Shown here: positions 2,471 to 40,406 of the stretch, one piece after another | How the letters are laid out: every line of letters starts with the position of its first letter | Position numbering within the stretch: position 1 is the first letter of the stretch | NCBI GenBank assembly: GCA_949741605.1 | Contig: CATJNB010000057.1 | Location: 1-57,908, forward strand | DNA length: 57,908 nt | Direction: 5' to 3' | Origin: an uncultured Eubacteriales bacterium | GTDB taxonomy: Bacteria > Bacillota > Clostridia > Oscillospirales > Acutalibacteraceae | Translations under genes and position numbers: made by a program | The notes under the pieces: generated by a model | Told to the model about the DNA's origin: nothing | What the model saw: only the letters and a program-made list of their open reading frames with translations | The model's database searches: none

Positions 2471-2475
2471 AAACA

Positions 2476-2510
2476 AAAACGCATCCGATACTTTACCGGA
2501 TGCGTTTTTT
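2476..2510. terminator. Bidirectional rho-independent terminator between convergent genes
   Basis: Perfect 12-bp arms aaaacgcatccg / cggatgcgtttt with a 9-nt loop. An A-run lies on the left and a T-run on the right. Confidence 0.75.
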
Positions 2511-2519: not shown

Positions 2520-3617
2520 TTAAAATTTACGTGCCGCATAAGCCTCGATGGTTTTTTGATAGTAAATCTCCATCGCGTCCACATTCTTTTGAAAATCATA
2601 GAGCCGCAGGGCACGTTCCCGGCCAGCTGCACCCATTTGATGCCGCAAATCCGGGTTATTGGCGAGTTCCAGCATCCGCTTGGCCATGGCCTGCGGATCT
2701 TTGGTTGGCACCAGAAAACCAGTCACATCATGCTCCACTGTTTCCAGAAAACCGTCAACATCCGAGGCAATGACCGGTACTCCACAAGCCATGGCCTCGA
2801 CCGCCGCCACCCCAAAACTTTCCGAGAGGCTCGGCAGGCAAACGACATCCATCTGGTTGAGGATCGCAGGGACTTCCGTGTTCGGCACCACCCCAGCTAA
2901 TTTGGCTTTTGCACTCAGACCAAGCGAATCAATTTGGCGCTGTAATTCTTCCTTCTGTTCCCCTTTGCCGTAAATCACCAGCGAAGTTTTCGTTTCCTCC
3001 CCGATCATCTGATCGAACAAGGCAAACGCCTCAATGAGATATTCCATCCCATACGTGGGCTCCAATGCTTTGACCGCACCAATCCGAAATTCTTCCCGGC
3101 TTTCCAGGGAAGCCGCCGGCGCAAATAGCCCGCAGTCTACACCAAAAGGGGTAATAAAGATTTCCTTCTGAAATCCAAACACCCGGTTGACCTGCTTTGC
3201 CATGACATGGCTCGTAGAAGCGAGTGCATCGGCTTTTTGCAGGTTTTTGAGAACCATTTTTTTATGGATGGGGCTTTTGAGCGGGAATTCATACACATCG
3301 CTGCCCCATACGGATAACAAGAGGGGATGCAGTTTGGCAAGCCGTACCAGTGTCCCGTAACCACTCGCATAGTGGCAGTTTACAACATCAGGACTAAAGG
3401 CGTCCACCTGCTGTTTGAGTTCTTTGGCATTGAGGAAATACCCCTGAAAACCACCGGTTTTGAGATAGATGACCGTAACCTCCGGGTCGATATTCTGCTG
3501 GATATTTTTATGGTTTGGCAAGGAATACAGCCGTACCGTATGCCCGCGTCTTGCCAGGGCATTGACCCATTTGACTGTGTGTACCGAGCCTGCCGCCGAC
3601 ACAAATGCAATTTTCAT
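2520..3617 (-). CDS. Glycosyltransferase family 4 (GT-B)
   Basis: 365 aa with an AAGGAG RBS. The C-terminal half has the typical GT4 motif (LPSLSESFGVAAVEAMACGVPVIASDVDG..E). Confidence 0.9.
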   Translation of the reverse strand: MKIAFVSAAGSVHTVKWVNALARRGHTVRLYSLPNHKNIQQNIDPEVTVIYLKTGGFQGYFLNAKELKQQVDAFSPDVVNCHYASGYGTLVRLAKLHPLLLSVWGSDVYEFPLKSPIHKKMVLKNLQKADALASTSHVMAKQVNRVFGFQKEIFITPFGVDCGLFAPAASLESREEFRIGAVKALEPTYGMEYLIEAFALFDQMIGEETKTSLVIYGKGEQKEELQRQIDSLGLSAKAKLAGVVPNTEVPAILNQMDVVCLPSLSESFGVAAVEAMACGVPVIASDVDGFLETVEHDVTGFLVPTKDPQAMAKRMLELANNPDLRHQMGAAGRERALRLYDFQKNVDAMEIYYQKTIEAYAARKF

Positions 3618-3629: not shown

Positions 3630-4697
3630 TTACCTGCTTAAATCATCTATCACCGTTTGTGCGCGGTCGATCCAGCGGTTTCCATGATCCACCGCCTCAT
3701 ACACACTACTGCAATAGCTCGCATAAACCTGCGAATCCCCTAAAATCTCCCGTACCTTGTCCGCAAAATCCTGCGGGTCATCGCGGCATGTAAGGCCAAT
3801 CCGGTTTTTCCGAACAAATTGCCCCACTTCCACTGTATCTACCGAAACGACTGGTAATCCAAATTCCATGTATTCCGTCAGTTTCACCGAAAAGGCAAAA
3901 TCATTATACTCATTTTTCTCCACTGGACGGAGCGCTAAATTGGCTTCCTGATATAATTGTTTGAGGTTATCTTTCCCTGACACATGCAGCATTGTCAGCC
4001 AGGGACGTCCTTTATATTGCTCGATATACCCCGCTTCGCTTTCCCGACACACGAGCGTCAGGGGATATTCCACCTGACCTTCCGGGTTGAGCAAATCAAA
4101 CGCCTTTAGCATGGTATCGCTGCCATATGCCCGGGAAATCCCGCCAACATAAATGCTTTTACGCTGGTTTTCCTGCCCGCGTTTATCTCCAAGGTTCCCC
4201 ACACAGGCCGGCGGCAGCGGGGCAGTGTTTGGAAAGTCAAATTGTGCCGCCATGGTTTCGGTCGGAAAATACATCAGGTCGGTATATTTTTTTAGAAATT
4301 TCAAATCGCGGTTCGAGAGGTACGCAATTACTTTTTCCCGCAACGTCTTATTATTCTGCCCAAAAAGATGCGCGTATTTAAAATAGGCATCGCGGTAAAA
4401 GTAACCGATCCGTACCCCCATATTATGGACCCGTTTGAGGAGTTTATGATCGCAAGACTGGAAAATAGGTCCTGACGGGCTTTCCACATAACAGAAATCC
4501 GGGCGGTTATGATCGAGCCACTGGTTGATTTCTGCCACAGCCCTTTGGCGTTCTTCTTTTTTATTCTGCTGGGTCTTTAGGAGCTTGACCTGCATCCCCA
4601 GCTTCAAAAAAGCATCGTACATCATCTGCGGGCGTACCGAGGAACCAGATTTGAATTCCCCAAAGTCAATATAGGTGATATATAGTATCGTACTCAC
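3630..4697 (-). CDS. Putative glycosyltransferase (GT-B/GT4-like)
   Basis: I moved the start to the GTG at 4697. An AAGGAGG lies 7 nt upstream and the GTG overlaps the upstream stop (GTGA). The ORF-track start at 4769 would overlap the upstream gene by 76 nt. Confidence 0.65.
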   Translation of the reverse strand: MSTILYITYIDFGEFKSGSSVRPQMMYDAFLKLGMQVKLLKTQQNKKEERQRAVAEINQWLDHNRPDFCYVESPSGPIFQSCDHKLLKRVHNMGVRIGYFYRDAYFKYAHLFGQNNKTLREKVIAYLSNRDLKFLKKYTDLMYFPTETMAAQFDFPNTAPLPPACVGNLGDKRGQENQRKSIYVGGISRAYGSDTMLKAFDLLNPEGQVEYPLTLVCRESEAGYIEQYKGRPWLTMLHVSGKDNLKQLYQEANLALRPVEKNEYNDFAFSVKLTEYMEFGLPVVSVDTVEVGQFVRKNRIGLTCRDDPQDFADKVREILGDSQVYASYCSSVYEAVDHGNRWIDRAQTVIDDLSR

Positions 4698-6106
4698 GCC
4701 GATTCCTCCTTGGATGATTTTTGCTTCTGTTTCCGACCGGAAATGCGTGGCCCAAGATATTTCCTCCACACCTTCGGGAACAAATTCACGGCAATGGTCA
4801 ACGCAATAACCAAAATAAACTGGAAGTTATAGATAAAGTCGGTAAATCCTGTTTGGGTATTATGTGCAAAACTGTTGGTCAAAAACGCAAATACCGCAAT
4901 ATTAAAGGGGTTTTTTTGCAGCCTCAGGAACACAAACACAAACATCGCGATAAACGCCGCCACATACAAAATCGAAAACACCATACCAATATAACCAAAA
5001 TTGGCATAAGCTTCGCCGATCCAAAGGGTATTCATGACACCGCCAGTGCCCTCATACACCTTTTCCGACCCATAGAAATCCATGACGGCTTTCGCGGAAC
5101 GTACTGGCGAGCCTTCGATCCCTAGAATTTTCATCGCTGTCGGGGAAATACTCCGCCCGCTCAAAAATGGCAGGATATCCGGGAACAAATCAAAATGCAG
5201 GATCATGGTACCAACTTGGGTAAAGACAGTACGCCCAATCGGGCCGTTGTAAATATCAATGCCGCCAGAGAAGTCAAAGCCGCTCTTGCCATAAATGAAC
5301 ACCATATACAGCACGATTACCCCAATAAATCCCCAGATCAGCAGTTTGGGCAAACGTCCGCGGATATAAAGGATCACAAGCAGCAATACAAACAGGTAAA
5401 AAATTACAGGGGATTTTTCAAAGTTACTGGTCAGCCCCAAAACCGAACTGCCAATCAAAACCACAGCCGCAATCCACCAGCGCAGGCTCTTTTTCAGTGC
5501 CCAAGCATATGCGAATGCCACATAGGAAAGCAGTGGCAACCCCAGATGCAACGCAAGGTTTGTGATGCGTTCGCCTAGCGGTGCAACACTCGTAATCAAC
5601 TGGCGTTCAATGGCCATATCAAACCCGGAAGGTGTACGCAGCAGGCGCATAATAGGGAAATAATGCACCTTGCGGTAAATAGCGATCATATACAATAGCA
5701 GAAATCCCACACACAAAAACCCGATCACCGCAACTGCCCAGAAAATTTTCTTCTCAAAGCGCACATTCGTTGCTTTTTGCAGATACCCCGCATATGCCTC
5801 TTTCATGTTAAAACGAAGCAGCCGGTAAATCACGCAGATCGTCAGCGGGAACAGGATGGCCGTAGCCAGGGTACTGTAAAACATGATATCGAAACTCGCT
5901 TCATGCAGCACATATTTCATGGTATAATGGTTTCGGTCGCCAAGGTACACCATCGACGCGCCGATCATGCTCTGCGCCAAAAAGAGATACATAATATAAG
6001 AAATCACATTGATTTTGCCGATATCAATGGTAGAGGCAGCCCTGCGGAACAGAAAAACCGACACGGCAATCCCCACCACGACCAAAATAATTTTTAGCAC
6101 AATCAT
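4694..6106 (-). CDS. Wzy-like oligosaccharide repeat-unit polymerase (multi-pass membrane protein)
   Basis: 470 aa, more than 10 hydrophobic segments and a basic C-terminal tail. It sits between glycosyltransferases and a flippase. Confidence 0.6.
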   Translation of the reverse strand: MIVLKIILVVVGIAVSVFLFRRAASTIDIGKINVISYIMYLFLAQSMIGASMVYLGDRNHYTMKYVLHEASFDIMFYSTLATAILFPLTICVIYRLLRFNMKEAYAGYLQKATNVRFEKKIFWAVAVIGFLCVGFLLLYMIAIYRKVHYFPIMRLLRTPSGFDMAIERQLITSVAPLGERITNLALHLGLPLLSYVAFAYAWALKKSLRWWIAAVVLIGSSVLGLTSNFEKSPVIFYLFVLLLVILYIRGRLPKLLIWGFIGVIVLYMVFIYGKSGFDFSGGIDIYNGPIGRTVFTQVGTMILHFDLFPDILPFLSGRSISPTAMKILGIEGSPVRSAKAVMDFYGSEKVYEGTGGVMNTLWIGEAYANFGYIGMVFSILYVAAFIAMFVFVFLRLQKNPFNIAVFAFLTNSFAHNTQTGFTDFIYNFQFILVIALTIAVNLFPKVWRKYLGPRISGRKQKQKSSKEESA

Positions 6107-6118
6107 ACTGCTTCCCCT

Positions 6119-8740
6119 CTACGATCCCGATGCCTGAGAGGCATTATACTGTTTATTGATGATATATTCCTGGGTCACATTGTCGCCTGTGCGGAACTTG
6201 TTCACCATAAAATCAATCTTGCTCCGGTCAAAATCCTCATCCAGATAGATGCCGCAGAAACGGTGGTTTTTCGACAAATCTTCCAGCACCGACAAATCCT
6301 GAATCTGTGTTTGCTGGATGTTAATGGACATCAGACCCTCTGCCCCTTTGAGGTCATCCAGCGTAGAGAGGCGCAGGTTGCCATTGATACTCAAATATTC
6401 CACCTGCGGATAATCCCGCAGGAAGGCAAGGTCAGAAAGCAGATTGTTGGAAAGCGTCAAGCGCGACAGATCCGGCAGTGTCCCAAGGGAGGTAATGTTA
6501 GAAATGGTATTGCGCTGAAGGTTATATTCTGTGATCTTGGGCGTATTCTGGAGCGGCGAAAGCTCTGTGATATCATTCGAAGCAAGATACAAAATCGTCA
6601 GTTCAGGCAGGTTGGAGAAAATGCTCACATCCGTAATCTGGTTATTGGCAAGGTTCAAATCGCGCAAGTTTTGCAGTTTCTGGATATCCGCCGAAATGCC
6701 CGGCTGTCCGACTGGCGCATTAATAATCGCATTATTGCCAAGATTCAATTCCTCGATGAACTCCAACTCATACAGCGGGGTCACGTCCTGAATCTTATTG
6801 CCCGAGAGATTCACATAAGTCAGGCTCGCACAATTGGCCAGCGCACTGATATCTTTAATCTGGTTGCTGTTTAAATCCAGTGTACGCAACGCCCTCATGT
6901 TTTCCAGCGCAGAAATATCCCGTACCTTGACCCCGGAAATCTGTAAATTTTCCATATTCACACAGCCGCGCAAATCCTCAAGGCTCTTAATTTCCAAGTA
7001 CCCATCCCCCATGATGACCATACGCGTCACGGTTTCGAGGTCGCGGTCGTAGATGGTCGCACCATACGGCTTGCCAATAATATCATACAGTTCCTTTTCC
7101 AGATTTTTGTCTTGGAACGTAACCGGCTTGGCATCGCCATAGTCCACGCCAGCGGTCAGACTCGCCCGCCGGATATTATTCCCAATCAAAATCCCAAGGA
7201 TAATCAGGGTGATCACCAGTACCCCAAAAATAATCATAAACGGACGGTTTGCCGTTAAGGTTTTCAAGGCGGAGCGCACCCCTTTTTTCCTTACGGGCAT
7301 TCTGCCCGGCGTACGTTTTTCCTGACGTTTTGATGAACCCATTGCATCGTCTCCTTTCCTGTCCTGCAAAAGCTCGGCATCACTTCTATGCCCCCAGTCT
7401 GCATCTTCTTCCCCACTTGAGAGATCGTCCTTATGTTTACCGGCATTGCGTACAATGTTCTGGCAAAACTGGTAAAAGACCAGATAAGCACCTGCCATCA
7501 TGAGCGAGGAAATGAGCAGATACCATTTGAACGACAGCCCGTCCCAAGCAACCGCCACAATGGATGGCAGTAAAACTGTGCCGAGCAAACCGCATTGCCA
7601 AATGAGCGTGGCTTTTTGTTTGCCAAGGGCAATGGCACTGGAGGTCAGCGGAACCACGACAAACCGTACGGCAAACAACGGAATCACCAGCTTGAGGATC
7701 ATTCCAGTGCCCGTCCAGTTTGAACCAAGGAAAAGCCTGAGCAGCGGTTCGCCAAACACAAACAAAATGGCAAACGGGACAATCCCGATAATGGCCAGCC
7801 ATTTGGCGACATTCGCGAAGGTTTTGTCGAGGTTGTTTTTATTCTCTTTATCCATAGACGCCTGCTTGAGAAAGACCTGTGACACCGAGTTGGAAATCAT
7901 GGTCAATGGCAGCCCGAGGATGCGGTTGACCATCCCGTACAAACCCGTTTCCCCAACGCTGTACGCCGCCGAAATGGTCAGGGGAGTGATGTTCAGGGTC
8001 AGGCTGTTTGCCAAACCGCTTGGCAGCATATATTTGGGATAACGCGAATTTTTTTTCGCCATCTCCCACAAAAATTTCACCCGGAACATACTCCGGTGGA
8101 TGCGTCCACGCAAGGTCATAAACATACGCAGGTTGCCAAAGAAATTTGAGAACAGCTGCCCTAAAATCAGCCCCCAGAACACATAATCCTGCCAGCCAAT
8201 GGCAATAAACAAATAATAAAGCCCAATCTGGATAGCAATGGATGCCACAGCTTTAATAATGGTCGCGCTGGAAATGGTTTTATATTTCTCATGGCGCACA
8301 TTAAAATAATTGACCGCAGTGGTTGTCCCACAGATCAGGGTCGTGAATGGCACTGCCCATAAGGATGCCTGTTCTGCCGGGCTTGTGAGGTTGAGCATCC
8401 CGCCGATCTGTGGGATAAACGGCCACATCACGATTGCCATGAGCAGCGAGAACCCCACCGCTAAAAGGCAGCTTAACAGGAAGGAACCACCGGCTTCCTC
8501 ATCATCGTCCGCAACGACGATTGCGTAGTCATAACGGAAACAGGCAATCTGCTGGGTGATATTGATAATCGACACATAAATCGTATAAATACCCATGGCA
8601 TGGTCGTTGTAAAGACGTCCAAGCAGGGGCGTAAACAGCACTGGAAGCGCCTGTGCAATGAGAGTCCCGCCAGACAGCACCGCCACATTTTTTAAAAAGC
8701 GGTTCTTCATAAGGCCCGAAAGCTTTGATCGAAAACCCAT
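6119..8740 (-). CDS. Wzx-type polysaccharide flippase fused to a TM anchor and an internalin-like LRR domain
   Basis: 873-aa continuous ORF. Residues 1-~440 are a polysaccharide-biosynthesis/flippase fold, followed by a charged linker, one TM (PFMIIFGVLVITLIILGILIG) and ~11 LRRs of 22 aa. Confidence 0.8.
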   Translation of the reverse strand: MGFRSKLSGLMKNRFLKNVAVLSGGTLIAQALPVLFTPLLGRLYNDHAMGIYTIYVSIINITQQIACFRYDYAIVVADDDEEAGGSFLLSCLLAVGFSLLMAIVMWPFIPQIGGMLNLTSPAEQASLWAVPFTTLICGTTTAVNYFNVRHEKYKTISSATIIKAVASIAIQIGLYYLFIAIGWQDYVFWGLILGQLFSNFFGNLRMFMTLRGRIHRSMFRVKFLWEMAKKNSRYPKYMLPSGLANSLTLNITPLTISAAYSVGETGLYGMVNRILGLPLTMISNSVSQVFLKQASMDKENKNNLDKTFANVAKWLAIIGIVPFAILFVFGEPLLRLFLGSNWTGTGMILKLVIPLFAVRFVVVPLTSSAIALGKQKATLIWQCGLLGTVLLPSIVAVAWDGLSFKWYLLISSLMMAGAYLVFYQFCQNIVRNAGKHKDDLSSGEEDADWGHRSDAELLQDRKGDDAMGSSKRQEKRTPGRMPVRKKGVRSALKTLTANRPFMIIFGVLVITLIILGILIGNNIRRASLTAGVDYGDAKPVTFQDKNLEKELYDIIGKPYGATIYDRDLETVTRMVIMGDGYLEIKSLEDLRGCVNMENLQISGVKVRDISALENMRALRTLDLNSNQIKDISALANCASLTYVNLSGNKIQDVTPLYELEFIEELNLGNNAIINAPVGQPGISADIQKLQNLRDLNLANNQITDVSIFSNLPELTILYLASNDITELSPLQNTPKITEYNLQRNTISNITSLGTLPDLSRLTLSNNLLSDLAFLRDYPQVEYLSINGNLRLSTLDDLKGAEGLMSINIQQTQIQDLSVLEDLSKNHRFCGIYLDEDFDRSKIDFMVNKFRTGDNVTQEYIINKQYNASQASGS
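6239..6991 (-). repeat. Coding tandem repeats: ~11 leucine-rich repeats of 22 aa (66 nt)
   Basis: Repeated pattern LxxLxxLxLxxNxIxDISxL, e.g. LRTLDLNSNQIKDISALANCASLTYVNLSGNKIQDVTPL. Confidence 0.85.
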
Positions 8741-8752
8741 GCTCTCCCCACC

Positions 8753-9868
8753 TTATTCCAGATTACCCAGGCTTTTTTCCTTGAGGTACGCATTGATAAA
8801 GCCATCCAGATCACCGTCCATGACGGCGTTGATATTGCCCATTTCAAAATTCGTGCGGTGGTCTTTGGCAAGGGTGTACGGCATGAACACATACGAGCGG
8901 ATCTGGCTGCCCCAGCCGATTTCTTTTTGTTCGCCCTTGATGTCCTCAATGCGGTCAAGATGTTCGCGCTCCTTAATCTCCATGAGCTTGGACATCAGCA
9001 TTTTCATCGCCACTTCGCGGTTCTGATGCTGGCTGCGTTCTACTTGGCAGGATACCACAATATTGGTTGGCAAGTGGGTCAAACGGACCGCTGAAGACGT
9101 CTTATTGACCTTCTGCCCACCCGCACCGCTGGCCCGGTAATAATCAATTTTGAGGTCATCGGGATTGATGTCAATTTGGATATTATCGTTAATTTCGGGC
9201 ATAACCTCCAGCGACGCAAACGACGTATGCCGGCGTCCAGAGGAGTCAAACGGCGACACCCGCACCAAACGGTGTACCCCTGCTTCACTTTTCAGAAACC
9301 CATAAGCATTCACGCCTTCAATCAGCACAGACGCACTTTTCAGCCCAGCTTCTTCGCCATCGAGATAGTCGAGCGTCTTGACTTTGTAGCCATGGCGTTC
9401 CCCCCACCGGCAGTACATCCGGTAGAGCATTTCTGCCCAGTCCTGTGCTTCCGTACCGCCTGCGCCTGCATGGAACGTCAGGATCGCGTTGTTTTGATCG
9501 TACTCCCCATTGAGCAGGGTGGTTAAACGCTGTGTTTCCAAGTCCCGTTTAAACCCTTCGCATTCCTCCTGTGCTTCCGGCAGAAGCTCCAAATCTTCCG
9601 CTTCATCGGCCAGCTCAATCAGGGCAAGCGCGTCCTCATAACGCCGTACTAAGGCGTCGTAATCCGCCACTTTCCCTTTTAACATGCTGGTGCGCTGCAA
9701 AACCTTCTGTGAGTTTTCCATATCATTCCAGAAATCTGGATGCGCAGCCTGTTCCTCCAGCTTCGCGATTTCTTCCCCCATCGCATCAAGGCCAAGCGCT
9801 TCTGCGAGGTCTTTGAGCGCTGGTCCTTGCTCGGTCAGCTCTAACCTTAATTCTTCAAATTGAAGCAT
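8753..9868 (-). CDS. prfB: Peptide chain release factor 2, uninterrupted (no +1 frameshift)
   Basis: 371 aa with the SPF tripeptide (VSPFDSSGRRHTSF) and the GGQ motif (ASGAGGQKVN). The N-terminus aligns through the region where other bacteria carry CTT TGA. Confidence 0.95.
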   Translation of the reverse strand: MLQFEELRLELTEQGPALKDLAEALGLDAMGEEIAKLEEQAAHPDFWNDMENSQKVLQRTSMLKGKVADYDALVRRYEDALALIELADEAEDLELLPEAQEECEGFKRDLETQRLTTLLNGEYDQNNAILTFHAGAGGTEAQDWAEMLYRMYCRWGERHGYKVKTLDYLDGEEAGLKSASVLIEGVNAYGFLKSEAGVHRLVRVSPFDSSGRRHTSFASLEVMPEINDNIQIDINPDDLKIDYYRASGAGGQKVNKTSSAVRLTHLPTNIVVSCQVERSQHQNREVAMKMLMSKLMEIKEREHLDRIEDIKGEQKEIGWGSQIRSYVFMPYTLAKDHRTNFEMGNINAVMDGDLDGFINAYLKEKSLGNLE

Positions 9869-15524: not shown

Positions 15525-16766
15525 TTACTCTCCTTTGTACTTGCGGAATGCCAACGTTGCATTATGGCCGCCAAATCCAAATGTATTTGACAACGCATAT
15601 TCCATGTCTTTTTCCTTGCCCACGTTCGGGGTAATATCCAAATCACATTCTGGATCTGGCACTTTATAATTGATCGTCGGTGGCACGAAACCATCCTTGA
15701 GCGCAAGGACAGAGAAAATCGCTTCTACTGCACCCGTTGCGCCGAGCAGATGCCCAGTCATCGACTTGGTAGAACTGATCGAAACGGTTTGAGCCGCATC
15801 CCCTAATGCAGACTTAATCGCTAAGGTTTCAAATTTGTCGTTTGGCGGCGTCGAGGTGCCGTGTGCATTGATATAATCGACCTGCTCCGGTGCGATCCCG
15901 GCATCGTCCATGGCGCATACCATGGAACGGGCTGCCCCTTCCCCTGTTTCGGACGGCAGCGTAATATGGAACGCATCACAGGTTGCGCCATACCCAACAA
16001 TCTCCCCGTAAATATGTGCGCCGCGCGCTTTGGCATGTTCGAGTTCCTCCAGCACCAGAATCCCGGCGCCTTCGCCCATGACAAACCCGGAACGTTCCTT
16101 ATCAAACGGGATGGAAGCCCGGTTAATATCCGTACCTTCGTGCAGAGCCTTCATAGACGTAAACCCGCCCAATGCCAAATGCGTGATGGTCGATTCCGCA
16201 CCACCGGTAATCATAATTTCCTCATAGCCGTCCCGTATCCGGTGAAATGCATCGCCAACCGCATGGGTACCGCTCGCACACGCTGTTACCACACAAGTAC
16301 ACAGCCCTTTTGCATTAAATTCAATGGCAATGTCGCCAGCACCCATGTTAGCGATCAGCTGCGTGATGAAAAACGGAGAGATCCGGTCATACCCTTTCTC
16401 CATTGCCTTGATATGTTCGGTTTCCATCACTTCCATGCCGCCTACACCCGACGAAACAATCACGCCCATTCGGTTGTGGTCAAACTGCGCGTCCTGCAAA
16501 CCAGAGTCTGCATAAGCCTGTTTGGCGGCGATCAGCGCAAACTGGCGGTACCGGGACATCTTGCGGGCAACCTTTTTTTCCAGATAATTTTCTACCACCA
16601 AATCCTTGACCTCAGCCGCAATTTTAATCTTATGCTCGCTGACATCCAATTGTTTGTTTATGCCAATCCCACATGTTCCGGCCCGGGCTGCTGCCCAAGT
16701 TTCCGCTACGGTATTGCCGATTGGAGTGACTGCTCCCATACCGGTCACCACTACTCTTCGTTTCAT
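15525..16766 (-). CDS. fabF: Beta-ketoacyl-ACP synthase II (housekeeping)
   Basis: 413 aa. Cys-His-His motifs [15 protein letters not shown] and INAHGTST, with C-terminal [12 protein letters not shown]. Confidence 0.95.
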
Positions 16767-16778
16767 GCCTTCCTCTCC

Positions 16779-17516
16779 TTACATCACCATTCCGCCATCC
16801 ACCTGAAGTACCTGCCCTGTGATATAGCCTGCGTCCTTGCCGGCCAAAAAGGCCACCGCATTGGCAATATCTTCCGGCTTTCCAAAACGTCCCAAGGGAA
16901 TGGTCTTTTGTATGGTTTCTTTCATGTCCTCGCCAAGGACCTCTGTCATATCCGTATCAATAAACCCTGGAGCAATCGCATTGACGGTCACACCACGGCT
17001 GCCCAGCTCTTTGGCCAGCGACTTGGTCATCCCAATCACCCCAGCCTTGCTTGCCGCATAGTTCACCTGTCCGGCATTTCCGGTCAGCCCCACCACGGAC
17101 GATAAATTAATAATCCGTCCGCTGCGCTGCTTCATCATCAAGCGCGATACCTGCTTCATGCAGTTCCATGCGCCTTTGAGGTTTACCGCAATCACCTGAT
17201 CAAAATCCTCTTCACTCATACGCATCATGAGATTGTCCCGGGTAATCCCTGCGTTATTGACTAAAATATCCACCTTACCGAATGTTTTCACTGCCGTATT
17301 GATGATAGTTTCGCACACGGCAGGGTCTGCAACACTCCCTGCAACCAATACCACCTGTACGCCAAAAGCCTCACATAACGCTTTGGTTTCCTCGGCTTTT
17401 TCCGTATTTCCGGCATAGTTAATCACCAGGTTTGCCCCCAGGGAGGCCAGCTTTAAACAGACTGCCCGGCCAATCCCACGGCTGCCGCCGGTCACAACTG
17501 CTGTTTGATCCTTCAT
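16779..17516 (-). CDS. fabG: 3-oxoacyl-ACP reductase
   Basis: SDR motifs TGGSRGIG, NNAG and YAASKAG. Start set at the ATG 8 nt after AGGAG; the ORF-track GTG is 9 nt upstream. Confidence 0.93.
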   Translation of the reverse strand: MKDQTAVVTGGSRGIGRAVCLKLASLGANLVINYAGNTEKAEETKALCEAFGVQVVLVAGSVADPAVCETIINTAVKTFGKVDILVNNAGITRDNLMMRMSEEDFDQVIAVNLKGAWNCMKQVSRLMMKQRSGRIINLSSVVGLTGNAGQVNYAASKAGVIGMTKSLAKELGSRGVTVNAIAPGFIDTDMTEVLGEDMKETIQKTIPLGRFGKPEDIANAVAFLAGKDAGYITGQVLQVDGGMVM

Positions 17517-17527
17517 GATATCCACTC

Positions 17528-18454
17528 CTATTGTTTTAGGGCATCCAGTGTTTTTTGCAGGGACTCTGGGTCCTCAACCTGATACACTGGGATTTCCTTG
17601 GTAATTTTTTTGATGAACCCACTGAGTACCTTGCCCGGGCCAATTTCTACGATCGCCTGTACGCCCTGTTCTAATATGTAACGAATGCTGTCCTCAAAGT
17701 ATACCGACGATTTTACTTGACGGGTCAATAAAGCGGGGATCGTTTCACCTTCCCCAAGCGGGCGGGCAGTGGCATTAAACACCACCGGGATTTGCAGGGG
17801 AGCAAAGGAAACAGCCCGAAATTTTTCCGCCAGCTTTTCGCCAGCAGGTGCCATCAGCGACGTATGGAACGGGCCGCTCACAGCAAGTGGGACTGCACGT
17901 TTGGCTTTACGGTCCAAAGCCCCCTGCACTGCTGCATCAACAGCTTTCGTCTGTCCGCCAATCACAAGCTGACCGGGACAATTATAATTCGCGATTTCCA
18001 CAATCCCTAACGCACTGGCCTGCTCACAGGCTTGCTGAAGCAGCTCACGGTCAAGACCCAAAATGGCAACCATTTTACTTTCCATGCCTTGTACCGCTTC
18101 CTCCATGGCCTGCCCGCGGAACCGTACCAAATCTAAAGCCGTCTGCTGGTCGAATACCCCGGCTGCATACAGCGCCGAATATTCCCCCAAACTCAGTCCG
18201 GCCGCGATATCCGGGGTGACACCGTGTTCCCTGAGTACTTCCGTAATGGCAATCGCCGTGGCAACCATACAGGGCTGCGTATATTGAGTCTGGGAAAGCT
18301 GCTCAATAGGCCCCTCAAAACAAAGCTGTTTGACATCAAAGTCCAGCGAAACCGCATCCAAAACCTTTCTGGCAGCCGCATATTCCTGATACAGCTGATG
18401 TCCCATTCCCACGGTCTGGCTGCCCTGCCCGGCATACACAAAACCAAGTTTCAT
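17528..18454 (-). CDS. fabD: Malonyl-CoA:ACP transacylase
   Basis: FVYAGQGSQ and GLSLGEYSAL motifs. Start set at the ATG after the GGGGGA RBS (MKLGFVYAGQGSQ). Confidence 0.93.
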   Translation of the reverse strand: MKLGFVYAGQGSQTVGMGHQLYQEYAAARKVLDAVSLDFDVKQLCFEGPIEQLSQTQYTQPCMVATAIAITEVLREHGVTPDIAAGLSLGEYSALYAAGVFDQQTALDLVRFRGQAMEEAVQGMESKMVAILGLDRELLQQACEQASALGIVEIANYNCPGQLVIGGQTKAVDAAVQGALDRKAKRAVPLAVSGPFHTSLMAPAGEKLAEKFRAVSFAPLQIPVVFNATARPLGEGETIPALLTRQVKSSVYFEDSIRYILEQGVQAIVEIGPGKVLSGFIKKITKEIPVYQVEDPESLQKTLDALKQ

Positions 18455-18516
18455 GAGTCTGAATCCCCCTTTATGTTTGTATAATCCCATGCTGCAAAGG
18501 CAACAAAGCGGGAAGA

Positions 18517-19446
18517 TTACAGTTGTGCCAAGGCCTTGTATGCGTTGTCACAACCAACAAAAAGCTCCTCGATAATTTCCCGGACGGGTTTTACCTCATT
18601 GCACAAACCAGCCACCTGGCCAGCCATCATGGAGCCATTCTGGGCATCGCCGTCAAAGACCGCTTTACGCAAAGCGCCTAAGGTAAATTCCTCGAGTTCC
18701 TCCCGGGTTGCGCCTGCTTTTTCCCGCTGTAAATACTCTTTGGTCATTCTATTTTTCATGGTGCGTACCGGTACGCCGCCAATCCGCCCAGTCACTACTG
18801 TATCGGTATCGCCGGCCTTGACCACCGCCTGTTTATAGTTCTCGTGGATCGGGCATTCCTCAGCAACCAGCAAACAAGTCCCGACCTGTACGCCAATCGC
18901 CCCAAGCGCAAACGCCGCCAAAACCTGCCGTCCGCTTGCAATGCCGCCCGCCGCAATGACTGGGATATCCACAGCATCCACGACCTGCGGCACCAATGCC
19001 ATGGTGGTCAGCTCGCCCACATGGCCGCCAGCCTCGGTACCTTCAATAATGAGAGCATCTGCCCCGCTGCGTGCCAGACGTCTTGCCAAAGCAACGGTCG
19101 CGGTTACCGGCAGTACCTTGATCCCCGCTTCTTTCCATGCCGGGATATATTTGCCCGGATTGCCTGCACCAGTGGTCACAACGGGCACCTTTTCTTCCAC
19201 CATCACCTGTGCAATTTCATCGACATGGGGATTCATCATCATGATATTGACCCCAAATGGTTTATCGGTCAGGCTGCGGCAAATGCGGATCTGTTCCCGG
19301 ATTTTTTCCGCATCCATACTGCCGCTCGCAATCAATCCCAACGCCCCTGCATTGGATACCGCTGCGGCAAATTCCGCCGTAGCAATGTTCGCCATACCGC
19401 CCTGAATCAGGGGATATTTGGTTCCAATCAATTCATTTAATTTCAT
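18517..19446 (-). CDS. fabK: Enoyl-ACP reductase II (FMN, nitronate monooxygenase fold)
   Basis: MKLNELIGTKYPLIQGGMANIA N-terminus. AGGAGG RBS before the ATG at 19446. Its position inside the fab operon supports the call. Confidence 0.88.
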   Translation of the reverse strand: MKLNELIGTKYPLIQGGMANIATAEFAAAVSNAGALGLIASGSMDAEKIREQIRICRSLTDKPFGVNIMMMNPHVDEIAQVMVEEKVPVVTTGAGNPGKYIPAWKEAGIKVLPVTATVALARRLARSGADALIIEGTEAGGHVGELTTMALVPQVVDAVDIPVIAAGGIASGRQVLAAFALGAIGVQVGTCLLVAEECPIHENYKQAVVKAGDTDTVVTGRIGGVPVRTMKNRMTKEYLQREKAGATREELEEFTLGALRKAVFDGDAQNGSMMAGQVAGLCNEVKPVREIIEELFVGCDNAYKALAQL

Positions 19447-19474
19447 AGTTCCTCCTAAAATTTGCTGTTTTCCC

Positions 19475-20434
19475 TTACCACTCCAGAAGGACAGCACCTA
19501 ATGTCAGCCCGCTGCCAAAGCCTACCATCACCAGACGGTCGCCACGGCGCAATAAGCCCTGCCGTTTCATCTCTGTGAGCGCAATCGGGATGCTCGCAGC
19601 AGACGTATTGCCATATTTTTCAATATTCATAAAAAATTTCTCAATCGGTAAATCCATTTTTTTGGCCGCCGCGGTAATGATCCGCTGGTTGGCCTGATGG
19701 GTCACAATATAGGAAATATCATGGGTACTCAGGCCCGCCTGCTCGAGTACATTCCCCACGCAGACCGGAATGGTTGATACCGCAAATTTGAAAATACTCC
19801 TGCCGTCCATGCGGATCAAGGACGGTTCCTCCTGACCCGCAAAGGGCGCTCCCGGGATCCGGAAAGCCTCATCGTCACCCTTGGCTGAAAGATAACTGTA
19901 AAATTCCCGTTCGGTATCCCGGCACACCACTACAGCCCCAGCACCGTCCCCAAACAGGACACAAGTATTGCGGTCTGTATAATCGACAAATTTGCTCATG
20001 ACTTCCGCGCCGATCACCAGAATATGGCGATCCGGCATCGCTGTGGCCAAAAGTCCATTCGCAATCGCCAGTGCATATGGGAAACCGGTACAGGCTACAT
20101 TGATATCAAATGCCATGACAGCCTGATTTTGGTCAAACTCCATCAGCTGATGGATGCGACAGGCAGTCGAAGGCTGGAAATCATCCGGAGTGCTAGTCGC
20201 AACAATAATCGCCCCAATCTGCTCTTTTGTAATCCCGGCATCCTGCATCGCCCACTGTGCCGCCCGAAAACCCAATACCGAAGTATTTTCCTTTTCGGCA
20301 ATACGGCGTTCCCGGATTCCTGTACGGGTGACAATCCATTCATCGTTGGTATCTACCATATGTTCCAAGTCCTGATTTGTCAGGACCTTGTCTGGGACCG
20401 AATATCCAGCCCCCAAAATCTTTAAACCGCTCAA
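19475..20434 (-). CDS. fabH: Beta-ketoacyl-ACP synthase III
   Basis: 319 aa with INVACTGF active-site Cys, HQANQRI and GNTSAASIP motifs. TTG start. Confidence 0.93.
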   Translation of the reverse strand: MSGLKILGAGYSVPDKVLTNQDLEHMVDTNDEWIVTRTGIRERRIAEKENTSVLGFRAAQWAMQDAGITKEQIGAIIVATSTPDDFQPSTACRIHQLMEFDQNQAVMAFDINVACTGFPYALAIANGLLATAMPDRHILVIGAEVMSKFVDYTDRNTCVLFGDGAGAVVVCRDTEREFYSYLSAKGDDEAFRIPGAPFAGQEEPSLIRMDGRSIFKFAVSTIPVCVGNVLEQAGLSTHDISYIVTHQANQRIITAAAKKMDLPIEKFFMNIEKYGNTSAASIPIALTEMKRQGLLRRGDRLVMVGFGSGLTLGAVLLEW

Positions 20435-20480
20435 ACCATCTTCTCCCTATCTCTCAAATTCACAATACCATAAAACTCTA

Positions 20481-21431
20481 TTATAATCCGCTACAATCTC
20501 CAATACTGCGGAATTTTTTATACCGTTGCTCAAGCAACGCACGCTCGCTCATTTTTCCGAGTGCGGCCAATTCGTTTGCGAGGTTGATACGGATCTGACT
20601 ATAAACCATTTCAGCATTTTCCCGCAGATTCCCAACTGGTTCCTGAATAATCAGGTCAATGACGCCCAAATCAAGCAGGTCTCCAGCCGTCAGCTTCATC
20701 AGTTCGCTGGCTTCTTTGGCGCGGCTGGCATCCTTCCACAAAATGGTCGCAAAGCCTTCCGGCGACAGGATCGAATATACTGCGTTTTCGAGCATCCAAA
20801 CACGGTTTGCTACGGATAACGCCAAAGCCCCGCCGCTGCCGCCTTCCCCGACCACAATTGCAATCACCGGCACTGTCAGGGTACTCATTTCCATGAGGTT
20901 GCGCGCAATCGCATCGCCCTGGCCATGCTCCTCCGCCTCAAGGCCCGGATACGCCCCGGACGTATCAATAAACGTAATAATCGGGCGTTTGAACTTTTCG
21001 GCCTGTTTCATCAGGCGAAGCGCTTTGCGGTACCCTTCTGGATTCGCCATGCCAAAATTGCATTTGATATTTTCCTCCAGATTACGCCCTTTGAGATTCC
21101 CAATGACCGTCACCGGAGTGCCGTTAAAGGCCGCAATCCCGCCAATAATCGCTTCATCGTTGCGGTACAGGCGATCGCCTCGCTGTTCAAAGAAGTGGTC
21201 AAATATGTTCTCAATGTACTCGCGCACATTCGGACGGGTTGGCTTGCGTGCCAAATATACCCGGTCATAACTGGTCAGGTTGGCATACGCCATATTCAGA
21301 ACCCGTTCCTTTGCTTTTTCGAGTTCCATGCGTATGGTTTCGGTGTCAAGGTCATGGCCGGTCAGCTGGGTAAGTTTTCCAAGCTCATCGTCTAGCTCGC
21401 GGACTTTCGCTTCCGCTTCCTGCAAAGTCAT
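20481..21431 (-). CDS. accA: Acetyl-CoA carboxylase carboxyltransferase alpha subunit
   Basis: FIDTSGAYPG and VIGEGGSGGALA motifs. The ATG lies 10 nt after AAAGGAGG and 2 nt after the accD stop. Confidence 0.93.
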   Translation of the reverse strand: MTLQEAEAKVRELDDELGKLTQLTGHDLDTETIRMELEKAKERVLNMAYANLTSYDRVYLARKPTRPNVREYIENIFDHFFEQRGDRLYRNDEAIIGGIAAFNGTPVTVIGNLKGRNLEENIKCNFGMANPEGYRKALRLMKQAEKFKRPIITFIDTSGAYPGLEAEEHGQGDAIARNLMEMSTLTVPVIAIVVGEGGSGGALALSVANRVWMLENAVYSILSPEGFATILWKDASRAKEASELMKLTAGDLLDLGVIDLIIQEPVGNLRENAEMVYSQIRINLANELAALGKMSERALLEQRYKKFRSIGDCSGL

Positions 21432-21433
21432 CC

Positions 21434-22312
21434 TCAACGCACCTCCTTTGTATGGAGTTTAAGCAACAGCGCAATGGTGGAACGCATGTCTTTCCGTTCG
21501 ACAACCTGATCCACAAACCCATGGTCCTGTTGGAACTCCGCCTGCTGGAACCCTTCCGGTAATTTTTGCCGGATCGTCTGTTCAATGACCCTTGGGCCCG
21601 CAAAACCAATGAGGGCTTTGGGTTCGGCTAATACGATGTCCCCCAAAGACGCAAAGCTGGCCGTTACGCCGCCGGTTGTTGGGTCAGTAAAATAAGAAAT
21701 ATAAAGCAGGCCAGCCGCACTGTGACGGGCAATAGCACTGCTGGTTTTGGCCATCTGCATCAGGGAAATGATCCCTTCTTGCATCCGGGCACCGCCGGAG
21801 GTACAAAACATAATTACAGGAAGACCCTTACGGGTAGCATACTCCACGGCCCGTGTAATCTTCTCCCCCACAACGCTGCCCATACTGCCCATCATAAAAC
21901 GGCAATCCATCACTCCCAGCACCACCCGGTGGCCATCCACGCGCGCTATCCCTGTCAGGATCGCATCGTTGAGACCGGTAGCCTTTTCGAGATGGTAAAT
22001 CTTCTGGGTATAACCGGGGAACCCCAGTGCATTTTTGGTCCGCAGCTTTGGACGGATCTCCCGGAAGGAGTCAGGGTCCACGAGTATTTGGATACGGTCC
22101 CATGCGGTCATACGCAAATGATGTCCGCATTCTGGGCATACATACCAATTACTTTTGAGCTGCTGGGTGAGGATATCCCCCTGACAACCCGGACATTTCG
22201 TATAAAGCCCTTCCGGGACATTCGCCTGTGGGGGCTTTGCGGGTTCTTTTTTGGGGAGCAGGGATTTGAGTACATTTAATTTTTCTTTGCGTTCTTTAAA
22301 TAAATCTTCCAT
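21434..22312 (-). CDS. accD: Acetyl-CoA carboxylase carboxyltransferase beta subunit
   Basis: N-terminal zinc ribbon CPGCQ..CPECGHH and a carboxyltransferase domain. Its start overlaps the accC stop (TAATG). Confidence 0.93.
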
Positions 22313-23664
22313 TATGTCACCAGCTTATCCAAGTTATTCTCAATGAAACTTGTATCAAAGGTACCGGAAACAAATTCCTCACTATGAAGGATCCAATAAT
22401 GCAGGTCGATATTTGTTTCGATGCCTTGAATAATCAGCTCCTCCAAAACCCTTCGCATCCGGCTGATCGCTTCTTCGCGGTTATTGCCAGACACAATCAC
22501 TTTTGCAATCATGGAATCATAGCTCGACGGGATCTGATACCCCTGGTACAAAGCGGTATCAATCCGCACCCCCATGCCTCCCGGAATATTGATCCCTTTG
22601 ACCGTACCCGGACAAGGCCGGAAATTTTCTTTTGGATTTTCCGCATTGATCCGGCATTCAATGGAATGCCCCCGCAAAACAACGTCCTCCTGAGAAAACG
22701 ATAACGGCTTTCCGGCTGCAATCAGGATCTGTTCTTTAATCAGGTCGATCCCGGTTACCATTTCTGTAATAGGATGTTCGACTTGAATCCGGGTATTCAT
22801 TTCGATAAAATAATAATTACCATCCTTGTCAAGTACATACTCAATGGTTCCTGCATTCTCATAACCTGCCGCTCGGGCGGCCCGCACAGCATCCTGCCCC
22901 ATCTGGTCACGCAGTTCCGGGGTCAGGGCGGTAGAGGGCGCTTCCTCGATCATTTTCTGGTTGCGCCGCTGGATGGAACAGTCGCGCTCCCCAAGATGCA
23001 CCACATTGCCAAACCGGTCTGCCATAATCTGGAACTCGATATGTTTAGGACACAGGATCAATTTTTCCAAATACATATCATCGTCGCCAAAACAGCTTTT
23101 GGCTTCGGTACGTGCGGCCAAAAATTCCTTTTCCAGCTCCTCCGGCTCATACACCCTTCGCATCCCGCGTCCACCACCGCCTGCAGACGCCTTAATGAGC
23201 ACCGGATACCCAATGCGCTCAGCAGCCTCGCGTGCTTCCTCAACCGTATGCACACTGCCATCCGACCCCGGTACCACTGGCACGTCATGATCCATCATCA
23301 GCTTACGCGCCGCAGACTTGTTGCCCATCTTGTCAATCACGTCGCCGCTGGGACCGATGAATTTGATCCCGCAGGTTTCCACCAGACGTGCAAAGGTCGC
23401 GTTTTCCGATAAAAAGCCAAAACCCGGGTGGATCGCGTCACAGCCCAAGGTGGTAGCGGCAGCCAGGATATTTTTCATATTCAAGTAACTTTCCGTAGAC
23501 TTCGCCGGCCCCACGCATACCGCTTCGTCAGCAAGCTTCACGTGCAGCCCAGCCTTGTCTGCCTGCGAGTAAATGGCCACGGTTTCAATGCCCAGTTCCT
23601 TACAGGTGCGGATAATCCGTACCGCAATTTCCCCACGGTTGGCAATCAGTATTTTCCGAAACAT
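22312..23664 (-). CDS. accC: Biotin carboxylase
   Basis: [27 protein letters not shown]-terminus with an ATP-grasp domain. 450 aa. Confidence 0.95.
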
Positions 23665-23673
23665 AGCCTCACC

Positions 23674-24144
23674 TTAACCCTCTTTAATCAACATAATGGT
23701 CTGGTCATATTCGACCATATCCTCCTGATTGACGAGGATCTTTACAACCTCTCCGGATACCGGCGCAGCAATTTCATTCATCATTTTCATGGCCTCAATG
23801 ATGCACAGGGTCTGGCCCTTTTGTACGCGCTGTCCGATGGTCACAAACGGCGCAGCATCTGGTGCACTTGCCTGATAGAACGTACCGACGACCGGCGACT
23901 TGACGGGTACTTCCCCCGGGTTCTCAAGTTGCACAGCAGAAACAGCAGTTGGACCTGCCTCCAAAACCGGTTCCGGATGGGCCTCAGCTGGAATTAACGT
24001 TGCTTTGGGAGCCTTGAACATTTTATTGATCGTGCTCTCTTTTTCCAGCTTTAAGGATAGATTTTCGATTTCCAGTGTCATTTTATGGATTCCAGACTGG
24101 TCAAACTCCTGTATTAAAGCTTTGATCTCTTCTAAATTCATCAT
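23674..24144 (-). CDS. accB: Biotin carboxyl carrier protein
   Basis: The biotinylation motif EAMKMMNEI is present. Start set at the ATG after AAAGGAG. Confidence 0.92.
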   Translation of the reverse strand: MMNLEEIKALIQEFDQSGIHKMTLEIENLSLKLEKESTINKMFKAPKATLIPAEAHPEPVLEAGPTAVSAVQLENPGEVPVKSPVVGTFYQASAPDAAPFVTIGQRVQKGQTLCIIEAMKMMNEIAAPVSGEVVKILVNQEDMVEYDQTIMLIKEG

Positions 24145-24263
24145 GCAATAAACTCCTTTAATCCCCAAGGCAAACGCGGCCTATCCCTATTTAGGAGGCG
24201 GCGATGCTTGATTTCTACAATAAGCGGGACAAATTGTTTTTCAAAATGGTAAACCTAGCTTTT

Positions 24264-31821: not shown

Positions 31822-32997
31822 TTAAACGAGATATTCCAGCTGGCCGTTTGTGGCAATCAGGCCACGGCTGGCGGTCTGTAATTGCACCGTTGGCGGGCCT
31901 TCCTCAAGCCACATGGCCCGGCAATCTCGATACATGCGTTCGACAGGACCATAAGAACAATCCTCAAAGTAACCAATCCCGCCAAAAATCAACAGCATAT
32001 AATCCGATACCAGACGCACCGTTTCAATACTGAAATATTTTGCCATGGCGGCCTTGGTTTCCGGATCTTTTCCAGCATCAAAATCACGGGCAAAATCATA
32101 GACCATGGTTCGCAGCGCATGGATATAGGTGCCCATTTCCGCGATGTAGCTCTGGATCATCTGGCGTTTGGCAAGGGGCTTTCCAAAGGTGACACGATCC
32201 TTTGCACGCGCAATGGACATTTCCATCATCCGCTGTGCCATACCGAGGTTGCTGACCGCAATGTGTGCCCGGGAAATGGCCAGCGAATGCATGGCTACCC
32301 GCAGCCCGTCCCCCTCTTTGCCCAGGAGATATTTTTCATCCACCCGTACATTGGTAAATTTGAGTTTGGCATGGCCCGCCCCGCGGCACCCCATCAAATG
32401 GGGCATCGGCAGCGTTTCGTAACCGGGGCTATCCACTGGCACAAAAAAGGCTGACAGCCGTTTTTCCTTGGGAGCTTCCGGGTCTGTCACGGCGATCACG
32501 TAAGCAAACTGGCAGCAGTCTGTATGGGAAATCAGGGTTTTTTCGCCGTTCAAAATATAATCTTTGCCATCTTTGACCGCTGTTGTGTGCAAATCCGCAC
32601 CGCTGCCGCCGGATTCCTCCGTAAGGGCAAAGCAAGTGAAAATGCTCTTATCCTGGAATTTATCCATATAAGACTGTTTGAGCTGTTCGCTCCCGAACTG
32701 GTCAAGAATCCGCCAGTTTAAATCCATGGCATAATGCAGGTGCATCCGCATCCCGCCCGGCCCACGGCTGAATTCTTCCTGTACCTGTAAAATTTGCAGT
32801 TCACTCAGGCCAAACCCGCCATATTCTTCCGGCAGGGCACAACGGTATAAATCATGCTCCTGTGCCAGACGGTAAAATTCATCCGGGAAATGGTTGGTGA
32901 CTTCCACCTCTTTTTGCATCTCCTCAAACGGCCCCTCGGCCAAGGCGCGGATTTTTTTCAAATAAGCGTCAAATTCCTGTGGTGTCAATGTACTCAT
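31822..32997 (-). CDS. Acyl-CoA dehydrogenase family protein (ACAD1)
   Basis: 391 aa with the ACAD fold (ALTEESGGSGAD, GxxG, C-terminal WLEEGPPTVQ in place of YEGTxxIQ). Its start overlaps the ligase stop (ATGA). Confidence 0.88.
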   Translation of the reverse strand: MSTLTPQEFDAYLKKIRALAEGPFEEMQKEVEVTNHFPDEFYRLAQEHDLYRCALPEEYGGFGLSELQILQVQEEFSRGPGGMRMHLHYAMDLNWRILDQFGSEQLKQSYMDKFQDKSIFTCFALTEESGGSGADLHTTAVKDGKDYILNGEKTLISHTDCCQFAYVIAVTDPEAPKEKRLSAFFVPVDSPGYETLPMPHLMGCRGAGHAKLKFTNVRVDEKYLLGKEGDGLRVAMHSLAISRAHIAVSNLGMAQRMMEMSIARAKDRVTFGKPLAKRQMIQSYIAEMGTYIHALRTMVYDFARDFDAGKDPETKAAMAKYFSIETVRLVSDYMLLIFGGIGYFEDCSYGPVERMYRDCRAMWLEEGPPTVQLQTASRGLIATNGQLEYLV

Positions 32998-34637: not shown

Positions 34638-34702
34638 TCCATCACCTTCCGCTGTTTTTTGCCGGATTTTCCAGCATACTCCTTTTATCTTATCGCATTT
34701 AT

Positions 34703-34740: not shown

Positions 34741-34765
34741 CTCATCCATAGTCTTTCCCTATCAA

Positions 34766-34802: not shown

Positions 34803-34814
34803 CTTTCTGTTCCT

Positions 34815-40400: not shown

Positions 40401-40406
40401 TATTTC

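Follow-up and report, generated by a model that had tools for sequence, protein, structure and literature searches.

A Wzx-type flippase fused in frame to a membrane-anchored leucine-rich-repeat ectodomain, with a conserved putative internal start site, in gut Clostridia

Does a gene which joins a polysaccharide flippase to a leucine-rich-repeat (LRR) protein in a single reading frame represent a true fusion, and does it give rise to one protein or to two? The question is raised by positions 6119-8740 (minus strand) of contig CATJNB010000057.1, assembled from an uncultured Eubacteriales bacterium (GCA_949741605.1); the whole stretch analysed, 57,908 nucleotides (nt) long, is referred to here as the window. 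These positions form one open reading frame (ORF) of 873 codons with an ATG start. An earlier note on this DNA had described it as a single 873-amino-acid (aa) ORF composed of a Wzx-type flippase, a linker, an extra transmembrane (TM) helix, about 11 LRRs and a tail, and all these parts were recovered where it had placed them (Table 1). The finding is confirmed as real: both of its ingredients, the fusion of a domain to a MOP flippase and the presence of an internal start, are of known kinds, and its distribution is narrow. With moderate confidence, the reading favoured here is that of one gene with two predicted products, the 873-aa fusion and a free 407-aa TM-anchored LRR protein, acting in a glycan pathway of the Wzx/Wzy type.

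The nature of the N-terminal half was established from both sequence and fold. The Pfam models Polysacc_synt_3 (PF13440; aa 40-343, 82.4 bits against a cut-off of 23) and Polysacc_synt (PF01943; 53.3 bits against a cut-off of 28.2) match this half and together cover aa 16-343, and the NCBIfam "MOP flippase family protein" and TuaB equivalog models match it below their cut-offs. A sequence search of the flippase half against the PDB gave no match, so that a fold search was needed. The AlphaFold2 (AF2) model of the full-length protein, based on a 51-sequence alignment, has a mean predicted local distance difference test score (pLDDT) of 87.9 and shows 12 long helices in aa 14-432; when the flippase part was modelled alone (pLDDT 92.5), 12 long helices were obtained in aa 14-439. 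With Foldseek, the flippase model was matched to MATE 6fhz, to the lipid III flippase WzxE (9g9p; TMq 0.73, TMt 0.78) and to MurJ. A simple hydropathy count was discarded for the flippase helices, as it under-calls MOP helices, and AF2 secondary structure was used instead. By sequence and fold criteria, this half qualifies as a Wzx-type MOP flippase and is predicted to flip a lipid-linked oligosaccharide. In fact, the likeness to Wzx/PST flippases such as E. coli WzxE and P. aeruginosa Wzx includes the Pfam Polysacc matches, the 12 predicted TM helices, a superposition on WzxE over the full length and a location beside Wzy-like (by a weak match) and glycosyltransferase genes, while the difference is that the window protein adds a linker, a 13th TM helix and a predicted extracytoplasmic LRR domain of 350 aa.

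After the flippase, the chain passes through an acidic region (aa 437-466, 11 D/E against 4 K/R), which contains the peptides HKDDLSSGEEDADWGHR and SDAELLQDR, into a basic one (aa 467-499, 11 K/R and 1 D/E, a count that includes Met467), and then into TM13, whose core (aa 501-519, Kyte-Doolittle 3.22) is the most hydrophobic segment of the whole protein. In the full-length model aa 442-487 are disordered (pLDDT below 50), helix 499-530 has a low placement confidence, and the LRR solenoid with its caps (aa 535-865) is confident (pLDDT above 90). The 11 repeats start at aa 574, 596, 618, 640, 662 (this one of 30 aa), 692, 714, 736, 758, 780 and 803; they are mostly 22 aa long and are flanked by an N-cap and a C-terminal cap and tail, with LRR_4/LRR_8 Pfam matches at about aa 597-822. 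Foldseek related the LRR model to InlF, InlA, the LRR of the Chlorobium Roco protein (CtRoco) and SDS22. At the junction, the Shine-Dalgarno (SD) sequence AGGAAAGGAG does indeed lie 8 nt before the in-frame ATG of Met467.

The earlier note had left the choice between a genuine fusion and two genes which had lost the intervening stop, and the comparison of fused and split orthologous loci that it had called for, run here with seven fused genes and eleven syntenic split loci, showed that both descriptions are true, since fused orthologues extend down to 47% identity and the split locus has one stop and a 17-27-nt spacer. In the split loci (L010-L016, L022, L023, L025 and L026), a wzx gene of 425-428 aa, where its start could be placed, is closed by a stop and followed by the spacer, which carries an SD, an ATG and a TM-LRR gene of 374-391 aa; in the loci of the Faecalispora and "Clostridium" group described below, the wzx gene (427-428 aa) ends in ...RNAK-stop, the SD reads GGAGAGG or GAAAGGAA, and the TM-LRR gene (383-391 aa) begins after 20-27 nt. 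By alignment, the flippase domain of the window protein (aa 1-436) is the counterpart of the entire 427-aa wzx gene of the split relatives, and Met467 falls on the start codon of their separate TM-LRR gene; moreover, in five of the first seven split loci both genes stand in the same frame, one stop codon short of fusion. Because the syntenic sister loci carry separate wzx and TM-LRR genes, the window gene is, on this comparison, a gene fusion of the Rosetta-stone type of two adjacent genes. When one genome per species was scanned, the split locus turned up in Faecalispora sporosphaeroides DSM 1294, F. jeddahensis, "Clostridium" minihomine, "C." merdae and several metagenome-assembled genomes (MAGs), all the genomes concerned belonging to Oscillospiraceae. 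A further MAG locus (L018, 6270-6332) shows wzx, 30 nt with a GGAGAG motif and a new ORF (MLKKITNNE...) cut by the contig end, which is probably another split-type TM-LRR gene. Separately, F. jeddahensis has two extra wzx paralogues at other loci (L017 and L020), 77% identical to the LRR-linked copy; as no LRR gene lies downstream of them, the flippase subfamily would also work without an LRR partner.

Among the 5.8 billion proteins searched, seven full-length proteins share the fused architecture (836-907 aa; 100, 82, 71, 70, 70, 53 and 47% identity), that is, the window gene and six other orthologue lineages with identities of 82-47%. The contigs of the orthologues come from different samples and keep the common order prfB, fused gene, 454-470-aa multi-TM protein and two glycosyltransferases of families GT1 and GT4. 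The architecture is nevertheless rare, since an exhaustive scan of 1.84 billion representative proteins gave only two fused representatives among the best 150 matches, the rest being Wzx-only proteins (about 425-442 aa), one TM-LRR-only protein (383 aa) and giant unrelated LRR proteins; a scan of the JGI metagenomes gave no additional fused loci and four more split ones. Judged from seven genes in different samples and from the agreement of assemblies, the fused state is inherited and maintained and is no one-off error. In neighbour-joining trees with bootstraps, a well-supported core fused clade (the window gene, L001, L002, L006, L007 and L003) and a well-supported split clade were obtained, and the position of the fused L004/P0007 between both was not settled. 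The outgroup locus L025 is split, so that the split arrangement is the likely ancestral state. Rooting with the LRR-less Faecalispora paralogues failed, as these nest inside the split clade, and re-rooting with L025 and distant Wzx sequences led to a trichotomy.

That the junction might be an assembly or sequencing artefact, a stop or frameshift truly separating two genes, is hardly credible in view of the independent assemblies. The junction region was found in many mouse-gut metagenomes, and the check for an assembly error suggested for positions 7340-7440 could be carried out on independent material: DNA contigs from three runs of three studies span 6000-8900 with 17 substitutions and 0 indels, and RNA contigs also cross without indels. 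One metatranscriptome contig (run X17) spans 7311-7625, including the linker, the SD and the ATG; a second (run X25; 1336 nt) covers 7075-8410, and further RNA runs cover both gene halves. The junction is, therefore, transcribed as a continuous stretch in the assembled RNA. Thus, the three short-read DNA assemblies and several RNA assemblies, over 7075-8410 or the entire ORF, differ by substitutions only, and the ORF is uninterrupted in each of the seven divergent orthologues, which come from different samples. The X25 contig carries a variant at window position 7345 (C>T on the plus strand; Ala466Thr), located in the SD-ATG spacer; it is the sole change near the internal start, with SD and ATG intact. 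In favour of an artefact, ENA assemblies of one related orthologue include frameshifted fragments: several near-identical copies of the L002/P0005 orthologue are recorded as fragments of 206-284 aa (P0044, P0049, P0116 and P0085), whose ends run into frameshifted sequence, e.g. ...GEKKN to GRRKISVPFGKI. These look like indel errors within otherwise identical sequence, most likely from long-read assembly, with real frameshift variants as the alternative.

If the fusion is genuine, the number of its products has to be read from the linker and the internal start. From the end of the flippase core (...RNAGK) to the SD, 22, 27, 31, 32, 36, 36 and 45 extra codons are found in the fused genes, with no counterpart in the split relatives. 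This linker is nearly unalignable between lineages and contains indels, yet its length is always a multiple of three; it is open in frame 0 in all seven genes, the other two frames mostly containing stops, and the probability that a shuffled linker lacks a stop is 0.13-0.41 per gene. It is also acidic in seven of seven (D+E 5-12 against K+R 1-3). Such a constraint on the translated linker argues that the fusion protein is made. The start site is constrained in a different manner: only K462, G463 and M467 are invariant columns in the linker of the protein alignment, and at the DNA level GAAAGGA, 9 nt and ATG are identical in 7/7 fused genes; even the third bases of AAA and GGA do not vary, GGA being rarely used for Gly in these genes (6-28% of Gly codons). 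In each of the seven, the internal SD-ATG has the best anti-SD pairing of all ATGs (-10.4 to -13.4 kcal/mol). Met467, at -13.4 kcal/mol, heads the 408 internal in-frame ATGs of 36 window genes and pairs more strongly than every annotated start in the window (best -13.0, median -9.2). No internal promoter was found by consensus scan near 7350-7500 of the minus strand, and site counts did not exceed those of shuffles. The constraint on the start-site nucleotides points to use of internal initiation, and, because SD and ATG appear to be preserved within the ORF by selection on the nucleotides themselves, ribosomes most likely also start at Met467. The suggestion that a 407-aa LRR protein could also be made on its own is strengthened in this way, Met467 being the split-gene start with an SD and ATG invariant in all fused genes.

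The membrane topology is compatible with such a protein. The Wzx of P. aeruginosa, mapped by experiment, has 12 TM segments with both termini in the cytoplasm (PMC2932511); together with the charge distribution, this published topology suggests that both flippase ends, the linker and the basic stretch of the window protein are cytoplasmic. The basic flank ahead of the extra helix fits an N-in/C-out anchor and, given the even helix count and this positive-inside flank before the 13th helix, the LRR domain should be outside. The earlier idea that an extra TM helix is needed to bring the LRRs out of the cell if the flippase C-terminus is cytoplasmic holds, on the basis of the 12 helices, the WzxE/MATE/MurJ fold, the mapped Wzx and the basic flank. 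The former signal anchor would be the 13th helix, with the LRR domain on the outer membrane face beside the flippase exit.

The favoured reading can be set out as follows. A conserved operon of prfB, wzx, TM-LRR, wzy-like and two glycosyltransferase genes was the source of the two neighbouring genes; in the window clade, as the comparison shows, the wzx stop has been lost, a 22-45-codon acidic linker joining the 12-TM flippase to the former TM-LRR gene. Initiation at Met467 alongside full-length reading would then give both a 1:1 flippase-tethered LRR (873 aa) and a free TM-anchored LRR (407 aa). The LRR ectodomain would share a membrane complex with the flippase and the Wzy-like polymerase; on the basis of the fusion and the conserved adjacency, it could provide docking or act as an adaptor, either for the flipped lipid-linked glycan or for the polymerase or ligase that acts downstream.

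Two other accounts of the same gene have to be weighed against this one. The full-length fusion could be the sole product, the KG...M / GAAAGGA-N9-ATG signature being a protein linker motif, a pause site for TM13 insertion or a slowly decaying relic of a start; this we consider unlikely. It is true that the ORF, the frame and the acidic linker composition are kept in all fused lineages, that the internal start could be blocked by ribosomes elongating out of the flippase part, and that mRNA accessibility there is unremarkable in four of the seven orthologues (minimum free energies of 50-nt windows indicate low structure in the window gene, L001 and L004, within the top 8-15%, and average structure in the four others), which also counts against the favoured reading. 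Nevertheless, the synonymous third positions (AAA and the rare GGA) and the 9-nt spacing to the ATG are fixed while the other linker columns and the linker length vary; a pause site needs no ATG at start-codon distance, a relic should be decayed at 47-70% protein identity, and no other SD-ATG pair in the window is as strong. Alternatively, the fusion could be a tolerated accident, i.e. a flippase with a meaningless tail plus an internally initiated LRR protein, the covalent link being without function or the full-length product rare or unstable. Split relatives manage with two proteins and several of them are one stop from fusion, so that the step is mutationally easy; the C-in flippase and the N-in anchor match, which makes the fusion harmless, and the internal SD and ATG are conserved. 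However, a neutral link predicts stops or frameshifts in an indel-rich linker of 22-45 codons, and none was found in the seven genes (about 4-5 lineages), in which the other frames do contain stops; furthermore, the linker is far longer than the approximately seven codons expected from simple stop loss and its composition is still acidic, which indicates selection on the translated linker. An accident is in our judgement likewise unlikely.

The reading of one gene with two products has, in turn, several points against it. The RNA evidence consists of assembled contigs, in which transcript ends and ribosome starts are invisible, and run X25, which spans the junction, may contain DNA. The predicted products, of 97 and 45 kDa, are deduced at the sequence level, and the conservation statistics are rough because the fused genes amount to only some 4-5 effectively independent lineages; the trees are compatible with one fusion event as well as with two. 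TM13 is not docked onto the flippase by AF2 (pLDDT about 50). As for the LRRs, the residues of the concave face are no more conserved than those of the convex face (entropy 1.60 against 1.66 bits, p = 0.53), and conservation gives no hint of a conserved ligand face. Moreover, the LRR half (6122-7342) evolves 2-3 times faster than the flippase half (7433-8740), with identities of 74 against 92% between the window gene and L001 and of 37 against 62% between the window gene and L004, as would be expected of an exposed domain on which selection is relaxed or diversifying. With regard to the pathway, the 470-aa neighbour taken as the candidate polymerase gives a weak full-length match to TIGR04370 (E 2.4e-7, 30 bits against a cut-off of 40), and neither a priming phosphoglycosyl transferase nor a chain-length regulator was found within the window.

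Nothing specific on a Wzx-LRR fusion, or on stop-loss fusions that keep an SD, came up in the literature searches, and the protein is best understood by comparison with systems that share one of its parts. The closest architectural precedent known to us is, by analogy, a MurJ/MviN protein with a C-terminal extension, the mycobacterial Rv3910, which is likewise a MOP flippase for a lipid-linked glycan with a C-terminal linker and extra domains. Its extension is said to end in an extra TM helix and an extracytoplasmic sugar-binding-like domain; if so, Rv3910 would follow the same logic of flippase, extra TM helix and outside domain as the window protein. The differences are that Rv3910 belongs to the 14-TM MurJ subfamily, has lipid II as substrate and no LRR, and that its extension has a cytoplasmic pseudokinase domain regulated by PknB/FhaA. 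The extension, with linker and extra domains, is placed at the cytoplasmic C-terminus (Gee et al. 2012), and Rv3910 is not known to have an internal start.

With the internalins InlA, InlF and InlB the window protein shares 22-residue LRRs, an N-terminal cap and a near predicted fold (Foldseek E 1e-13 to 1e-11). It differs from them in having no cleavable signal peptide, no Ig-like inter-repeat region and no LPXTG or GW anchor, the LRRs being held instead by an N-terminal 20-residue TM anchor and followed, in the AF2 model, by a short cap and a helix. Membership of the internalin family was rejected, as the protein reaches only 85-88 bits with the NCBIfam internalin models, whose cut-offs are 1050-1600. 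LRR ectodomains are usually viewed as host-binding adhesin modules; that of the window protein is unlikely to reach host receptors, since it would lie close to the membrane, under the cell wall. In the case of the Wzz/polysaccharide co-polymerase (PCP) proteins, the likeness (a bitopic membrane protein with a large extracytoplasmic domain, encoded beside wzx and wzy) would be a functional analogy at most. A PCP carries its coiled-coil periplasmic domain between two TM helices, whereas the window protein has one TM helix before an LRR solenoid, and membership was rejected; no PCP is recognisable in the window cassette.

Internal starts are represented by the N-terminal proteoforms of IF2 (alpha/beta), ClpB and CheA (long/short). 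As in such genes, a strong SD and an in-frame ATG lie within the ORF of the window gene, a C-terminal isoform is predicted and the site is conserved between orthologues; the difference is that the start is inherited from a formerly separate gene and that the predicted products differ by a whole 12-TM transporter. In-frame internal starts are in themselves established, with genome-wide maps obtained by retapamulin Ribo-seq (bioRxiv 10.1101/520783).

The fusion nominates the LRR ectodomain as a partner of the glycan flippase. Fusion of a conserved gene pair in a sister clade is a classic sign that the two proteins interact physically, and, should L004 truly be closer to the split clade, the fusion would have arisen twice independently, and nature itself would have supplied strong evidence that flippase and LRR form a physical complex. 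To our knowledge, the transfer of flipped lipid-linked sugars from Wzx to the next enzyme is poorly understood, and little has been learnt about the accessory proteins that Gram-positive anaerobes use in Wzx/Wzy pathways. In this context it can be proposed, as a tentative and rather doubtful extension of the favoured reading, that the TM-LRR protein is an unrecognised dedicated extracytoplasmic part of a conserved Wzx/Wzy-type envelope-glycan machine in Oscillospiraceae, handing over or gating the flipped unit on its way from flippase to polymerase, that one clade tethers it covalently to the flippase, and that a free pool persists thanks to the internal start. The tethered fraction of the LRR protein would in that case be fixed at 1:1 by the gene, and the untethered fraction would be adjustable. 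The kept internal ribosome-binding site would, furthermore, provide a clean natural example of a fusion which still yields the free downstream protein, and the cultured split-type relatives (Faecalispora sporosphaeroides DSM 1294) make a comparison between fused and split forms feasible.

Table 1. Positions of the fused gene, its parts and the surrounding gene string in the window
Feature	Position	Strand	Basis or remark
Promoter-like site upstream of prfB	9962-9934	-	Consensus scan
prfB (release factor 2), first gene of the string	8753..9868	-	12-nt spacer to fused gene; synteny
Whole fused ORF, 873 aa	6119..8740	-	Stop TAG at 6119-6121; flippase, linker, TM13, LRR ectodomain
MOP/Wzx-type flippase domain, aa 1-436	7433..8740	-	Pfam, AF2, Foldseek, alignment to split orthologues
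Acidic disordered linker, aa 437-460	7361..7432	-	Orthologue comparison, pLDDT
Internal SD AGGAAAGGAG, codons R461-K462-G463	7351..7360	-	Sequence, orthologues, anti-SD pairing
In-frame ATG, Met467	7340..7342	-	Invariant in fused genes; homologous to split TM-LRR start
Basic cytoplasmic juxtamembrane stretch (predicted), aa 468-499	7244..7339	-	Charge count
TM13 / signal anchor, aa 501-520	7181..7240	-	Hydropathy, AF2 helix 499-530
Predicted extracytoplasmic domain, aa 523-873	6122..7174	-	Pfam, NCBIfam, repeats, AF2, Foldseek
Ectodomain parts: N-cap, aa ~540-573; 11 LRRs, aa 574-827; C-terminal cap and helical tail	6260-7021 (LRRs)		
470-aa multi-TM protein, candidate Wzy-like repeat-unit polymerase	4694..6106	-	Starts 12 nt after fused-gene stop
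GT1-family glycosyltransferase	3630..4697	-	Likely start GTG 4697; orthologues 355-361 aa
GT4-family glycosyltransferase, last gene of the string	2520..3617	-	Family match
Strong terminator-like hairpin, 16 pairs and T run, ending the gene string	2475..2509	-	Sequence scan

The genes around the fused gene form a tight string, with 12-nt spacers and one 4-nt GTGA overlap at its junctions, and galU lies near it. The 470-aa neighbour gave no Pfam hit, and its position is kept in all relatives. At the overlap, the GTG of the GT1 gene overlaps the stop of the Wzy-like gene and is preceded by an AGGAGG SD at 4710-4705, the mechanical start call at 4769 being about 24 codons too long. The locus lies in a conserved region of housekeeping genes (prfB, rpsF-ssb-rpsR and dnaB/dnaI) and synteny extends across genera, for which reason a core envelope glycan of abundant gut Clostridia, rather than a variable capsule, would be its product.

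Some further features of the window do not bear on the fusion. A scan of the window with Rfam gave tRNAs only. A programmed +1 frameshift occurs in many bacterial prfB genes; it seems to be absent from that of the window, since the ORF is uninterrupted (371 codons, with the PCRF domain from residue 32). At 27627-29378 (minus strand) a 583-aa protein with a C-terminal type I dockerin and no other Pfam match is encoded, which hints at cellulosome-like surface assemblies in this mouse-gut Clostridium. Finally, apart from the fab/acc cluster at 15525-24168, a second acyl-lipid gene set is found at 31822-35843 and 39080-43790 (minus strand), comprising two ketoacyl synthases, two acyl-CoA dehydrogenases, an AMP-binding enzyme and a metallo-beta-lactamase-fold protein; its product may be a specialised lipid or resemble a polyketide.

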